A stretch of 64,000 nt of DNA from Octopus vulgaris (lineage: Eukaryota), in assembly GCA_951406725.2 (NCBI GenBank), contig OX597840.1:19220001-19284000 (forward strand). Reading direction: 5' to 3'. Shown here one piece after another: positions 13,545 to 58,460 of the stretch (its first letter is position 1; every line of letters starts with the position of its first letter). The notes under the pieces are model-generated. The model did no database searches, was not told the DNA's origin, and saw nothing but the letters and a program-made list of their open reading frames with translations. The position numbers were made by a program, and so were the translations under genes.

Positions 13545-14130
13545 TAAATTTTGGCACAAGGCCAGCAAGTTCCGGTGAGGGGGTAAGTCGATTACGTCGG
13601 CCCCCCGAGTTTGACTGGTACTTATTTTATCGACCCCGAAAAGATGAAAAGCAAAGTCGGTCTGAGCGTAACTTGAACTCAGAACGTAAAGAGGCGGAAG
13701 AAATAGCTATTTCTTTACTACCCACAAGGGGCTAAACGCAGAGGGGACAAACAAGGACAGACAAACGGATTAAGTCGATTATATCGACCCCAGTGCGTAA
13801 CTGGTACTTATTTAATCGACCCCGAAAGGATGAAAGGCAAAGTCGGTCTGAGCACAATTTGAACTCAGAGCGTGAAGAGGCGGAAGAAATACCTATTTCT
13901 TTACTACCCACAAGGGGCTACACACAGAGGGGACAAACAAGGACAGACAAACGGATTAAGTCGATTACATCGACTCCAGTGCATAACTGGTACTTATTTA
14001 ATCGACCCCGAAAGGATGAAAGGCAAAGTCGACCTCGGCGGAATTTGAACTCAGACCGTAGCGGTAGACGAAATACTGCTAAGCCTTTCGCCCGGCGTGC
14101 TAACTATTCTGCCACCTCACCGCCTTTTAA
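13545..14130 (-). mobile_element. Tandem trimer of SINE family B (period about 187 bp)
   Basis: Junction GAAATA(C/G)CTATTTCTTTACTACCCACAAGGGG at about 13700 and 13887. A single head at about 14130. Further older copies span 14150-14830. Confidence 0.9.
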
Positions 14131-15641: not shown

Positions 15642-16055
15642 AGGCGCAGGAGTGGCTGTGTGATAAGTAGCTTGCTTACCAACCACATGGTTCCGAGTTC
15701 ATTCCCACTGCGTGGCACCTTGGGCAAGTGTCTTCTACTATAGCCTCGGGCTGACCAAAGCCTTGTAAGTGGATTTGGTAGACGAAAACTGAAAGAAGCC
15801 CGTCGTATATATGCATATATATATATGTATGTGTGTGTATATGTTTTGTGTCTGTGTTTGCCCCAAAACCACCACCACCAACATCGCTTGACAACCGATG
15901 CTGGTGTGTTTACGTCCCCGTAACTTAGCGGTTCGGCAAAAGAGACTGATAGAATAAGTACTAGGCTTCCAAAGAATAAGTACTGGGGTCGATTTGCTCG
16001 ACCAAAGACGGTGCTCCAGCATGGTCGCAGTCAAATGGCTGAAACAAGTAAAAGA

Positions 16056-37116: not shown

Positions 37117-38811
37117 CATACATCTATATATATATCACTAATATATCGCTACAGCAACTAGCGAAACTTATACCTGAAAGCGAATCGATGCAGAAAGATA
37201 TAGGTTTACAAGTGTTGCTCTGCCAAAAAGCCTTTCATTGGACCTTCTTCATTCTCCTTTCTCTGAATCGGTCAACAATCGCTTTGTAGCCAGTTCAGGG
37301 AACACGAACGTGAGAGCATACAATTGATTACTCAGTTACAATCGTCTCTATTTAGTTCGATCATTCGATTACCGAAATCAAATGAAACTCCTTAACGTGT
37401 CTATGGTGTCTCTATGCATTTGTGCGTCCATATATTCATCAATGCCTTTCTTGTCCTTTTTCTTTATTTTTTTTTATATTTCTTTTAACATATTCCACCA
37501 TTAAGCCCAATCCTTTATGTGACTGAATTCCAGCGCATTTGTTCCGCTCTCGTTTTATCTTGTTAACGTAGTTTTATGCAAATGCCAGCACGAGAGAGAA
37601 AAAATTAGCCCATACAGAACATACTCACATTCACACAAAAACACGTTATATTAACTAATACCAGTCTTCTTTATATTCAATATTAATTGCCTTCAATTCG
37701 TTTTATGCAACCGATCCTAACTCCTTTTATTTTAAAATGAACTATGGGTTTAAATTCGACTGTTATATTATTTGAAATATCATTTCCTGTCTCTGTTTTA
37801 GCGCTAAATTGAAAACGGCGGATAAAAAACAAGGGTTGTATTAAATTAAATTATATTTGTTTTTGTTTCGCTCTTAGAAATGTTTTTTCTTTCTACTTTT
37901 TTTTTCTTTTTGTTTGTTTGTTAAAATTTTACTTCTGTTAAATTAAAACTGATGGTTTAACATATTTTTTAACAATAAAATATATTGGAATTTTCCACAA
38001 TAAACGGTGTTTTTGTTGTCTTCTTCAACCGCTGAGGTTATAACTTAAATGGTATTTTATACGACTTTAAATGCTAGTTTCAGCCAGAAGAGAGTAATTG
38101 ACATATCTGTAGCTTCGTATAAAAAAATTACAGAACCTCATTAAAAGCAAAAGGTTGGCAAGTTTTTCTAAAGCAAACATTAATTTTAGGAAACATTATC
38201 CTTTTTATTATCTGTTAGGAAACAGAGATGGCAGAAACTTTGGAGCATCGGAAAAAAAACACGCTTTCACTTTACGGTATTTCTTTTGGCTCCTTACGTT
38301 CTGCGTTCAAACCACGCCAAGGTCAAATTTGCTTTATATTCTATCGAGATTGATAAAATAAAGCACGAGTCAAGTACTGGATCCAGTGCAATCGCTTAAC
38401 TTCCACTTGCTGAAATTCTAGCCTTGTGCCAAATTTTGAAAAGAATAATTATGATCGGGTGTCTGAAGGCGGCGAGTTGGCAGAATCGTCAGTCTCAGAA
38501 AATTCCAGCTGTTAGCATTCTGGTTCGAAATCCCGCCGATGTCAACTTTGATTTTGATACTTTTGCGGTTGGTAGAATAAACTACCAGTCATGAACTGGG
38601 GTCGATGCTATGGACTAAACTCCTTTCCCTCAAAGTTGCTGGCTGTGTACCCAAATTTGGACAAAATATATTTTGGCTGTAGATTAGCAAACTTGTTTGA
38701 ATGTCAGAAAAAGCCACTTTTTGGTTTAGTCACATTTCAGAAATGATTTTTTAAAATTAAAAGTTAGTAATATTGGCGTAGGAGTGGCTGTGTGGTAAGT
38801 AGCTCGCTTAC

Positions 38812-39194
38812 CTCTGTCGTGGAAAGACGTGTTCTTTTTTTGGTGATGAGTCAAACGTTTTGTTGCACGTGGATAATTTTTTTCTATTGGAATTAGATGG
38901 AAGCCTGTGGCGAGGAAGCTGGGAGTGTTTGGCACCAGGTAAGTGGAAGCCAAAAACAGGAAAGAAAAAGCTAGAGGTCTACCCTGGTGGTCGGATGTCT
39001 ATCCTTCAGAGAAGCCATTACAAATTTCATTTGTACTGAGCAACGCTTAAGTCAAAAGTTATAAACATATTTATTAAATTATTGTATTTTTAAATTGTAA
39101 ATATTTAATCGCTACAGCTACTTCACCCTTTTATGTTTGTTTGTCCTTGTTCGTCCCCTCTTTGTAATGCCTTCATGGCAAATATTTAGGAAAT
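38812..39194 (+). mobile_element. Short non-autonomous retroelement inserted in a SINE A head with a 16-bp target duplication
   Basis: TAAGTAGCTCGCTTAC at 38796-38811 and 39195-39210. SINE A head at 38775. The 3' end TGTTTGTCCTTGTTCGTCCCCTCT...GGAAAT resembles the SINE B tail. Confidence 0.75.
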
Positions 39195-39210
39195 TAAGTA
39201 GCTCGCTTAC

Positions 39211-39700
39211 TTCCTACTGCGCATGAGTTGTTTGTTGTCGGTGTGCGCATGAGTCGTTGTGTTGTGCGTATCACTGAAAGAGATAGCCGGCTAGCTGGTG
39301 AAGAAGTTGCCAGCTTTTGTTTTTTAGGTCCAGTGGGGGTTGTTGTTTGTGGTAATATTTTTACAAGCAAGGAGTCCTCTCTAGGACTCTGGACTCTGGC
39401 CTGCCTGCAGTTGGGATAAGACTGTTCACATTAAGAGAATATATTTTCTCATTGTGAGAAGTGTTGTTTGGTGGGCGTGTCTCGCGACCAAAATTTGTGA
39501 AAATTTTATAAAATTCGTGGAGTATTTTTCTGTGTTCCTGCTTCTGGACCTGGAGTACTTGATTGGAGTACCAAGTTGTGGAAAACCTGTCAGCCAGGAT
39601 TGCCGGAGGACGGTAGAGTATTTGCCGTGGATTGAACTGTCTTCCTTCGTTCTTTTTCTCTGCTCTGTCTTTCTGTCACTGGGAAGACCAAAGTATTATG
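39211..39700 (+). mobile_element. Second element at the same SINE A site (5' region of a putative site-specific LINE)
   Basis: Starts right after the second target copy. TTGAACTGTCTTCC..CGTTCTTTTT is shared with 51440-51480 (-) and partly 58140-58180. The SINE A core resumes at 39711. Confidence 0.6.
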
Positions 39701-39984
39701 CATTGTTTTAGAAGGAAACTGAAAGAAGCCCCTCGTATGTGTGTATATCAGTTCACGTGTGTATGTGTGTGTGTTGTGTGCATATTCATTGGATTGGACT
39801 GGATTGCCTGTGGCTGGTTCACTGTAGAATGAAGGCCTCAGCATGTTCTCTCTACCAACTATGGTCAGATGTGGAGGTCGTGAATTTGAGCTTGAGATCT
39901 TATTGGTTTTGATGATCCTACGCTGCTACACTGGCTTGACATGGATTGGCAGAGGAATGCAGTTTTTATACTCCCACCCAGGAG

Positions 39985-40664
39985 CAGTTAAATCGATTAT
40001 ACTAACCCCATTGCTCAACCAGTACTTATGTGATCAACTCCGAAATGATGAAAGGCAAAGTCAGCTACGGTTGAATTTTAATTGTGGACGTAAGGACGGA
40101 CGAAATACCTATTTCTTTACTACCCACAAGGGGCTAAACACAGAGAGGACAAACAAGGACAGAAAAACGGATTAAGTCGATTATATCGATCCCAGTGCGT
40201 AACTGGTACTTATTTAATCGACCCCGAAAAGATGAAAGGCAAAGTCAACCTCGACGGAATTTGAACTCAGAACGTAGCGGCAGACGAAATACCTATTTCT
40301 TTACTACTCACAAGGGGCTAAATACAGAGGGGACAAACAAGGACAGTTAAAAGGATTAAGTCGATTATATCGACCCCAGTGCGTAACTGGTACTTAATTT
40401 ATCGACCCCGAAAGGATGAAAGGCAAAGTCAACCTCGACGGAATTTGAACTCAGAACGTAGTGGCAGACGAAATACCTATTTCTTTACTACCCACAAGGG
40501 ACTAAATACAGAGGGCACAAACAAGGACAGTTAAAGGGATTAAGTCGATTATATCGACCCCAGTGTGTAACTGGTACTTAATTTGTCGACTCCGAAAGGA
40601 TGAAAGGCAAAGTCGGACGAAATACCGTTAAGTATTTCGGTCGGCGTGCTAACGACTCTGCCAG

Positions 40665-44400: not shown

Positions 44401-45730
44401 ACAAAATAGAAAATTTCTGTGTGTAAATCTCCGTGATGAAATCGCAATACACAGGCGTAGGAATGGCTGTGTGGTTTGTTGCCTCATGAATAATATATGA
44501 GATCAACGTTCTCGGAAAAGAACGATCGGTGGGCGTCGCTTTTTCCCCTCTTTCAATCATAATTTTCATTTTTCATTTCATATAACTTTATGTCTGTGTC
44601 CAGCCCGCAGCTTCCTATCTCTATGTAAGGCCTTTATGGCCAATATAATCAAATAAAGAAGCTTACTTCCCTGCCACATAGCTCCAGGTTCAATCCCACT
44701 GCGTGGCAGCTTGGGCAAGTGTCTTCCACTATAGCCTATGGCTAACCAAAGCCTTGTGAGTAGATTTGAGAGACGGAAACTGAAAGAAGCCCTTGGTATA
44801 TATGTATATATGTATATATTTATGTGTGTGTGTCTTTGTGTCTGTTTGTCCCCCCAACACCATCGCTTGACAACCCCGTTACTTTGCAGTTCGGCAAAAG
44901 AGTCCGATAGAATAAGTACTAGACTTACAAAGAGAATAAGCACTGGAGTTGACCCATTAAGGCAGTGCTCCAGCCTAGCCGCAGTCAAATGATTGAAACA
45001 AGTAAAAGAATAAAAGAAATATATCCATGCAGACAAAAATACCCAGCTGTTGTTGCTGTTAAAATTGCAATGGAGGAATCTTGGATCTGGGTTAGAAACC
45101 GGTTCTTTCTTTATTGGCAAGAAATCTTGAAATAAACTGAATAATGACAGACATATAGGCACATGCGAAGTGTTTCTTTGTATATAACACGAAATCTTTT
45201 CCCTTAAAAATTTTTTCGTTAACCTCCTACCACCACCTCCGCCACCAACATTACCACTACTACGAACATTATTACAACTGCCACTACTGCCACCATCACC
45301 ACCACCACCACCATCATCACTGCTACAACTACTACTACTACTACTACCAACACCACTTCCACCTCCACTAAAACATCACACTAACACCAACACCTCCACT
45401 ACCACCACCAACACTACCACTACCACCACAACGTCTCTCTCCCCCACTCCCTCTGCCTATCACACACATCACTGACAAAAGTACCTTTAAATCTCTAGAA
45501 ATTTCTTTTCATTAAATTTTTTTAAATACTAAAATCTTTGTCCTTTGTCTTTTCGACCTCTTCCCCCCCTTTCTTATATTTCTCCTTCATATTTCTGTCT
45601 GTTTGTCTCTCAAACTTTCTCTCTCTTTCTCTCTCACTCTCTACCTATCTATTTCCCCCTTTCTTTCTCTCTATATTATTTTTCCTTTTCATCATATCTG
45701 ATTTTGCCGTTTGGAACCTTAATACTTCTA

Positions 45731-51244: not shown

Positions 51245-51921
51245 TGTGAACAACGGGAGAGAGATGTGACCATCGTCCATCTTCCTTTTCCTCGCGTGAC
51301 CATCTTCCTTTTCCTACACGACGTCCTAAGGACTGGACGTTTTTTTCTCTCTCTTCTATCTTTTCTCCTTTCAAAGAGAATATTTCTGCCAGCTTTCACT
51401 ACTTTCCTCTCGTTCTGGTCTAATGACCCTCCAGAAAGACAGACAAAAGAAAAAGAACGCAGGAAGACAGTTCAAATGGCAACAAAATTCAACTCTGGTA
51501 ATCCTTTGTAGCACAGTTAAAAATCATTTGCCGCATAAAAAATAGCAGCAAGAAATTGCTCCAATTCTGGTTGTACTCCAAATTCTGAAATCCATGAAGT
51601 GCACACAGTCACATAAAATCATAAATTTTCGTAGGGACACGCCTCCTGAAACACACACAATTCTCACTAAAAAGCGAGTCTTTTAGTACGACCACTGGCA
51701 AACAAATGTCTGGAACCCAGTGGAGACCCCTGTTCGGAAAAATAATAAACAATACGGACAACAGAGCCCACTGAGCCCCCCAAAAACAAATGCCTTACCT
51801 GCGGTCGTACTTCAGATGTTCGATTTTTCAACGTCAAACGACGTTACTTTCTCAGCGTAGAAAAAACACGTCAACAACTTAGTAGTAAGGAAGATACTTA
51901 CCACACAGCCACTCCTACGTC
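51245..51921 (-). mobile_element. SINE A head (51885-51921) joined at the same position to the putative site-specific LINE 5' region
   Basis: Minus strand GACGTAGGAGTGGCTGTGTGGTAAGTATCTTCCTTAC|TACTAAG. Segment 51465-51515 is essentially identical to 58102-58152 (+). Confidence 0.65.
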
Positions 51922-57696: not shown

Positions 57697-58460
57697 TAGG
57701 AGAAGGAAAGATCCAGAGAAAGGAAGACAGAGGGAAAAAATCGCCAACGGTACACACGCGGTCACATTTTGAATATGTGTGTGTGTGTGTGTGTGTTTGG
57801 GTATTAAAGCTACCATTGGTTTCATGTTAAGAAAAATATCTCACTATCTTAAAAATTTTTGAAGTCGATCTCATGGAGTAATGGTGTTCGTCTCCATTTT
57901 GAGTAAAGCGCGAAAATTCGCGGGAATTCACAAATAACTCTGGTAAAGAAGAAATCAAAGGGCGTGACTCTTGCATGACACTTTTGGAGTGATTATCCTA
58001 TTATATTCTTTTATTCCTTTGCTTGTTTCAGTCATTTGACTGCGGCCATGCTGGAGCACCACCTTTGGTCGTACAAACTGATCCCAGGACTTTGTAAGTC
58101 TGTGCTACAAAGGATTACCAGAGTTGAATTTTGTTGCCATTTGAACTGTCTTTATTCCTTCTTTTTCTCTTCTCTGTCTTTTTGCTCTTTTTTGTGTTTG
58201 CATTAAAGACTTTTATTTGAACATTTTTTATTTTGCTGGGGACTTTGATATTTTATATTTTAGTTTATTTTATCAATGGTAAATTCTAAATGAATTAACT
58301 CAGAAATTGGGACCGATCCAATAATAACGATTGTTTAGAAATTTCTATCGGCTTGCTTTCGAGACGCGTGTTTATAGTGATAAATTATGTGGTTATTGAA
58401 GATTAAGTCTACTTTCGGCATATTTGACATTGGAATTTTCTTTTTTTGCCCTTGTTTATA

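Follow-up and report, generated by a model that had tools for sequence, protein, structure and literature searches.

Almost certainly, a group of LINE families in the Octopus vulgaris genome parasitizes a single SINE, SINE A, in a site-specific manner. The initial annotation of a 64,000-nt stretch of this genome (the window) had proposed that a site-specific LINE lives on the SINE, and the fixed 3' junctions, the L1/Tx1 architecture, the tandem stacking and the non-autonomous derivatives found in the window and in the genome searched (2.8 Gb in 227 contigs) all bear this proposal out. We consider it very probable that families A1 and A2, their older kin and passengers of family B share one site of SINE A, where the LINE endonuclease would nick the DNA and reverse transcription would be primed.

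The window locus

At 38775-39780 the window holds a stack of two elements at the fixed site of SINE A, with the following features.

38775..38811, + strand: SINE A head, broken after ...GCTTAC; like the intact heads at 15649, 20254 and 7787
38797..38811, + strand: 5' copy of the 15-nt target, read from the sequence
38812..38894, + strand: 5' end of LINE family A1, 83 bp; 86% to positions 1-80 of L092, a full-length copy
38895..39195, + strand: 3' end of A1, 300 bp, with the last ORF2 codons and the 3' UTR; 95% to positions 5390-5690 of L092
39116..39123, + strand: 3' UTR motif AGCTACTT, antisense to AAGTAGCT of the target, read from the sequence
39168..39180, + strand: 3'-terminal hairpin TGCC-N5-GGCA, common to the SINE-targeting families
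39196..39210, + strand: second 15-nt target copy, at once the A1 3' junction and the B 5' junction, read from the sequence
39211..39675, + strand: remnant of the 5' UTR of family B (a family of ~2 kb that appears to be ORF1-only), ending before the B ATG
39666..39780, + strand: SINE A body resuming, diverged until about 39710; local alignment to intact SINE

Direct reading agrees with the outline given by the initial annotation, namely a broken head, a 383-bp insert, a repeat of the target and a second insert, which differs from the first and begins at 39211. The sequence TAAGTAGCTCGCTTAC occurs exactly at 38796 and at 39195, a spacing of 399 with 383 bp in between. The exact 16-nt repeat described earlier is therefore present, but the duplicated unit is 15 bp, AAGTAGCTCGCTTAC, rather than 16, because the base at 39195, a T in the window copy, is A in 18 of 19 other A1 copies and G in the remaining one. 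Bases 84-383 of insert 1 match 39 other loci at 91-96% (40 of 443 candidates scored), all but one of these loci end at the same base, and the internal deletion of insert 1, which removed about 5.3 kb of A1, is absent from the other scored copies (0/39). By these matches insert 1 is a privately deleted copy of A1, a LINE family of ~5.7 kb.

The SINE core, which had been taken to restart at 39711, probably does so near 39666-39680 in a diverged alignment. The alignment to intact SINE starts at TGTCTT (39666-39671), which is common to B and the SINE and so suggests a microhomology deletion; B was probably cut before its ATG by such a later event. We infer that B inserted first, that A1 followed at the 5' junction of B and that both were internally deleted afterwards, an order that fits the greater divergence of B copies from the window copy (74-93% alike) compared with A1 copies (91-96%). 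Non-autonomous derivatives do exist, as had been suggested, but the two inserts of the window are deleted remnants and not short families.

A pattern search located seven SINE heads in the window, three of them broken. An unmasked self-BLAST of the window was dominated by microsatellites. The two further breaks and a related fragment have the following features.

44454-44475 (whole locus 44454..44801), + strand: third broken SINE head, to GTGTGGT, by direct reading
44476-44655, + strand: 5'-truncated B-type 3' UTR, 180 bp; 88% to locus L267
51921-51885 (whole locus 51432..51921), - strand: SINE head, broken at the same base as 38811
51884-51432, - strand: B-related 5' UTR remnant with no 3' end left; about 450 bp related to insert 2
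58100..58234, + strand: isolated B-related 5' UTR fragment; 58100-58184 is 92% to 51516-51432

At 44454..44801, a locus that the initial annotation had overlooked, the 180-bp truncated copy is followed by a target of the AAGAAG type and then by the SINE body. The minus-strand head at 51885 had been reported as an independent break at the same base, with a related piece near 58102, and both reports hold (the latter for 58100-58184); the sequence after this head is 91% to 39632-39675 over 44 bp. Kinship to insert 2 at this locus is limited to 51884-51432, about 450 bp; 51239-51000 is another repeat.

Within the SINE A head, GTG-GTAAGT (for example window 38792-38800) is what we take to be a perfect match to the 5' splice-site consensus, and the LINE insertion point falls inside it. 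SINE A was also considered as a passenger of an A-type LINE and finds no support in this role: it ends in AAAGAGT-type repeats and shares at most 27 bp with A2 (E 0.1). A search for a partner LINE of SINE A in three loci found none.

The LINE families and their target

The target shared in SINE A reads GTGGT^AAG(T/A)AGCTTGCT(T/A)(A/C)C. In A1, the 3' ends fetched from other loci run into the 15-nt target and then the SINE body in 19 of 19 cases, and 17 of 19 other 5' ends are preceded by GCTWAC or CCTTAC, two (L081 and L083) having no SINE head; paired 5' and 3' ends are separated by as much as about 6 kb, and the 3' flank is TAAC-type in 1 of 55. A2 is a young family of 5.4 kb and the sister of A1. 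Its 3' 20-mer gave 111 matches, and all 100 listed continue with AAGTAG, none with AAGAAG; by our own count, 62 of these 100 flanks are TAAC-type and 33 TTAC-type. Each of the 30 RT-match loci that were fetched ends at the target site, with SINE beyond it in 28 and another element in 2, and the full-length A2 copies fetched show head, element and SINE tail in 11 of 11. Exact LINE-end/SINE junctions number 574 in the genome, against 63,270 intact exact sites (0.9%), the first 100 of which, all from the start of contig 1, comprise 37 TAAC, 40 TTAC and 23 TTCC.

A peak of breakpoints had been anticipated and is found: counts of SINE bodies preceded by five non-SINE bases are 572 for the site itself, 128 for position -5 and 26 for +4. 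Because the filter lets through nearly all LINE ends but only about one in four random flanks, 572:128:26 overstates the peak, and the LINE-end excess is about 460-500. The signal is clearer in the bases themselves, AAATA, the LINE end, being common to 81 of the first 100 bodies listed for the site. Truncated copies lie in partial heads, with junctions that range from target deletion to 15-16 nt, which argues for entry into existing SINEs.

Extension to full-length elements, as had been advised, yielded the APE, RT and zf-RVT domains in A2 ORF2. An RT query gave 147 scored matches, the close family having open frames as long as 1,150 codons, and young A2 copies, about 99% alike, have open frames of 1,140-1,150 codons. 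ORF1 of A2 is intact, with 466 aa and a zf-CCHC domain (Pfam, E 4.1e-5); a CCHC zinc knuckle in ORF1 is a feature of the Tx1 clade. ORF2 is likewise intact (1,133 aa), and its Pfam domains are Exo_endo_phos (APE), RVT_1 and zf-RVT, a C-terminal zinc finger. The best solved relative of this protein is human L1 ORF2p (E 5.5e-67; R2, E 7e-20), and among named proteins the closest to the RT comes from Argonauta hians (65%). A search of the ESM Atlas returned generic APE-RT clusters only, and further protein and cluster searches returned almost no names. The elements have a fixed 3' end and variable 5' truncation, with neither LTRs nor terminal inverted repeats at their ends. On domain content and end structure, A1 and A2 are APE-type non-LTR retrotransposons of the L1/Tx1 group. 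Formal membership of Tx1 is likely, the label fitting both architecture and behavior. The RT tree comprised only unnamed proteins and one automatically TX1-named coral protein; this coral protein, 31% identical to A2 over 725 aa, is not sister to the octopus group in it.

Away from SINE A, sister families (RT identity 74%) occupy a (TC)n tract, several unrelated repeats and a 5,277-bp tandem array. One sister LINE with this RT identity, L160 (G000:C7:108.59 Mb), lies within a (TC)n tract. Family C uses several unrelated sites; at least 8 of its copies also stand in tandem at G000:C9:59.20-59.25 Mb (L152-L154), repeating every 5,277 bp or so, and several of these carry 1,148-codon open frames. 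A second short repeat of the window, at 39988-40614 (minus strand), forms 184-bp head-to-tail arrays (3.4 copies), with related copies at 13760, 13946, 19055, 21178, 26093, 55070, 55254 and 55619. Its end is similar to the LINE 3' UTR, with a terminal (A/G)TAAAGAAAT as in sister families C and D, so it is probably a passenger SINE of C/D.

Family B follows another plan. At the B loci followed at length, a head precedes the element in 9 of 10, and a 3' junction into SINE comes after 1.8-2.1 kb in 7 of 10. Six of these seven match ORF1 proteins and none of the seven ORF2, the ORF1-like frame being about 22-32% to ORF1 proteins in the longer matches. From this structure, B is an ORF1-only non-autonomous LINE of ~2 kb, with a 5' UTR, ORF1, a shared 3' tail and many copies of like length. 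Among 30 fetched LINE-end/SINE junction loci, 17 are B-like, 7 have ORF2 and 6 are short. Stacks of two or three different families occur at one SINE site (L245, L251, L257, L258 and L054), and A2 is found both upstream and downstream of B-type elements in them.

Other arrangements were seen as well. At L056:3566-5055 an inverted A1 3' portion adjoins a 5'-truncated A1 copy, like the 5' inversions of L1, and at L166, L171, L102 and L104 copies shortened by internal deletion to about 85 bp to 1.2 kb lie between head and SINE body. Across the 5' junctions of the older copies L269, L274 and L280, target CTTCC and element GG together give CTTCCGG, which we take to be ETS-like, and TGCGCATG repeats in B 5' UTRs (for example at window 39219-39252) are presumably NRF1-like; both motifs could possibly be promoter parts.

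The 5' junction, the proposed mechanism and its rivals

A target site duplication (TSD) of about 15-16 nt, as described initially, stands for three truncated copies, but in full-length A2 the 5' copy appears to be partly element-derived. Twelve of the 32 six-kb loci are 5'-truncated. The target retained is 15-16 nt in three of these (L232, L246 and L250), 6-7 nt in two and 0-1 nt in three; of the remaining four, two show target deletions and two have no head. Full-length A2 copies with a 3' flank of the TTAC type were selected on purpose, with one junction unseen at selection for 20 of the 26; at the 5' junction, 26 of 26 read TAAC, A2's own version of the target there, and in two of them the sequence beyond the 3' target is no longer SINE. 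Eight of these 5' junctions are seamless, 14 read CTTTGCTAAC, three CTTGTCTAAC and one CTTGTTTAAC. One extra base is present in 18 of the 26, compared with 4 of 31 TAAC-flanked full-length A2 copies (p = 2e-5; L204, whose 3' end was not found, left out of the count). The extra-base types are scattered over an A2 tree of 54 copies, poorly resolved (20 of 51 branches open) and missing 4 of the 26 TTAC-flanked copies, so that insertion itself is likely their origin; the same scatter led us to reject the idea that donor copies pass on the extra-T junction. The older copies L266 and L274 show the same kind of mismatch, 5' TTCC with 3' TTAC.

These junctions make it quite probable that the 5' target copy is not a pure duplication and includes an RNA-borne, target-derived leader, as in R2, and the leader bases likely help full-length copies attach. 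By analogy with A2, the last bases of the target copy at 38797..38811 were probably supplied by the A1 RNA leader. Two weak tests for a ribozyme, Rfam on the A2 5' end and an HDV-like descriptor search on six 5' ends, gave no ribozyme and no convincing fold, respectively. A 5' UTR intron, considered for its donor- and acceptor-like motifs, was rejected on donors inconsistent across copies and the lack of a spliced joint; four guessed-RNA contig sets, which cannot show an RNA start or expression, span the A2 5' region without joints.

What the sequences show is a fixed 3' junction, intact ORFs, stacked elements, passengers with ORF1 only and an apparent TSD whose 5' and 3' copies do not match; from these we infer the following steps. 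The bottom strand would be nicked opposite GTGGT^AAG, and ORF2p would recognize the 3' hairpin TGCC-N5-GGCA before GAAATA, a hairpin that the passengers share. Of 135 distinct 3' ends, among which A1 and A2 are heavily represented, 107 have a perfect 4-bp stem, and two-sided changes occur in 10; the hairpin is likely the ORF2p recognition signal. The top strand would then be cut up to 15-16 nt downstream, often with trimming. The RNA would start about 4-7 nt inside target-derived sequence, (T)GCTAAC in A2, and the cDNA end would anneal to the top-strand overhang, overwriting the variant base of the target and often leaving one extra T where the target mismatches. A full-length insertion would rebuild the site, and later elements could stack upstream.

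It is distinctly improbable that the LINE is site-specific and the 15-bp repeat an ordinary TSD, with later mutation or gene conversion accounting for the 5'/3' differences. The truncated copies L232, L246 and L250 do show a 15-16-nt duplication, with the target's own variant on both sides in L232, and CpG decay could explain CTCG/CTTG differences; however, all 26 TTAC-flanked copies differ in the same direction (5' TAAC, 3' TTAC), the extra base tracks the mismatch (18/26 vs 4/31), and gene conversion would not halt after one base and add a T. Least probable of all is that a composite of SINE, LINE and SINE was copied as a unit by the SINE machinery, the LINE itself having no target specificity. 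The near-identical 5' junction bases in full-length A2, and the 62 of 100 listed A2 3' flanks that are of the young TAAC SINE type, would accord with such hitch-hiking, but the 5'-truncated copies in partial heads with different junctions largely refute it, A2 is found in both TAAC (62) and TTAC (33) SINE types with private flank variants, and many families with unrelated 5' and 3' UTRs occupy the same site, stacked on each other. The true target might instead be a tRNA or other small-RNA gene, with SINE A struck as a look-alike. The SINE head has A-box- and B-box-like motifs, read by the consensus that we assume for these boxes, but it has no Rfam tRNA match at E up to 10, and ARAGORN called 0 of 31 heads at its default score and gave inconsistent, mixed calls at relaxed thresholds. 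Tx1 relatives are described as targeting U2, U5 and 5S genes in the available portion of PMC4494074, yet the SINE-type AAGTAG follows every one of the 100 A2 ends listed and 28 of the 30 loci read further enter the SINE body, which leaves a small-RNA-gene target improbable.

The reading of SINE A as the target itself, cut by an endonuclease, would be modified if the antisense motif of the 3' UTR paired with the displaced DNA strand or with read-through RNA, the endonuclease alone being less specific. The motif is present at seven or more of its 8 positions in 19 of 50 junction loci (shuffled mean 2.3, maximum 7), and with read-through it pairs into a stem that encloses the hairpin. Among the scorable loci, GCTAC accompanies AAGTAG targets by 19 to 0 and GCTTC accompanies AAGAAG targets by 8 to 5 (p = 1e-4), a match to the target variant that comprises only 2-4 phylogenetically independent pairs. 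Moreover, among the 26 AAGAAG-target copies the motif is absent from 10 and non-matching in 5, and a structural stem that plays no part in choosing the site is another reading of it, so we regard RNA-assisted targeting as possible and rather doubtful. More tentative still, and on balance unlikely, is that the LINE lineage has tracked SINE A subfamilies (AAGAAG..TTCC, AAGTAG..TTAC and ..TAAC) by rewriting target-matching RNA at both ends, with a 5' leader that anneals and overwrites and a 3' antisense motif that pairs. If this were true, an APE-type LINE would choose its target partly by RNA programming, and the diagnostic changes of the SINE at the site would record a parasite-on-parasite arms race.

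Significance and relation to known systems

Site-specific use of SINE A by these families would reverse the usual dependence of SINE on LINE, with the LINE using an abundant SINE as a landing pad of tens of thousands of dispersed sites, about 0.9% of the exact ones being occupied. The polymorphic target is a natural label for the strand origin of each junction base, and it bears on 5' attachment and second-strand priming, which are poorly understood in L1-group LINEs. Young copies make endonuclease specificity, the leader and the antisense motif testable. The junctions also counsel caution, since what looks like a TSD in a site-specific LINE can come in part from RNA.

Targeting of other transposons by Tx1 elements is already known; no LINE targeting a SINE was found within the literature searched (Repbase, Dfam and most subscription papers lay outside its scope). 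The available text of PMC4494074 describes DNA transposons, LTR elements, snRNA and 5S genes and microsatellites as Tx1 targets, with Xenopus Tx1L in Tx1D, the crocodilian Tx1-Mar in Mariner-N4_AMi, Tx1-8_Crp and Tx1-4_AMi in LTR elements and Tx1-9_AMi in Harbinger. For Octopus vulgaris, a repeat annotation lists 13 recently active L1-Tx1 families, the words target and nested being absent from its available portion (PMC13282606). Another paper, in the part available, describes RTE elements and leaves Tx1 unmentioned (PMC9115989).

The octopus families resemble the transposon-targeting Tx1 elements, as far as the available text of PMC4494074 covers these, in their mobile-element landing pad, tandem stacking and non-autonomous passengers. 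They differ in their target, a SINE head that offers at least 63,000 exact sites and is struck at one and the same nucleotide by essentially all copies examined. Their passengers at this site code for ORF1, and the 5' leader appears to be target-derived, a feature not seen in that text (PMC4494074). The sister LINE L160 lies in a (TC)n tract, as do the microsatellite-targeting Tx1 elements Kibi and Koshi (PMC4494074, available portion), whereas the A and B families have left a microsatellite-type target for the SINE. ORF1-only non-autonomous LINEs are also known, namely HAL1, HeT-A and Ag-Sponge (PMC5753468 and PMC5786205, available portions). Like these, as described there, B consists of a 5' UTR, one ORF1-like frame and a 3' tail without ORF2; unlike them, it is site-specific, resembles the ORF1 of the autonomous families at only about 25-30%, and outnumbers its autonomous kin, 17 vs 7 of 30 junction loci. 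B works in the manner of HAL1 without descent from mammalian L1. In R2, according to the available portion of PMC3774820, the RNA retains 9-36 nt of the upstream 28S target, the carried bases are proposed to anneal and to give uniform 5' junctions, and non-templated additions occur. A2 is likewise proposed to carry upstream target bases on its RNA that anneal to the target. Unlike R2, which has a restriction-like endonuclease and a proven HDV-like ribozyme, A2 is of the APE type and gave no ribozyme in our searches, and its leader would be shorter, about 4-7 nt, and lie inside the duplicated stretch.
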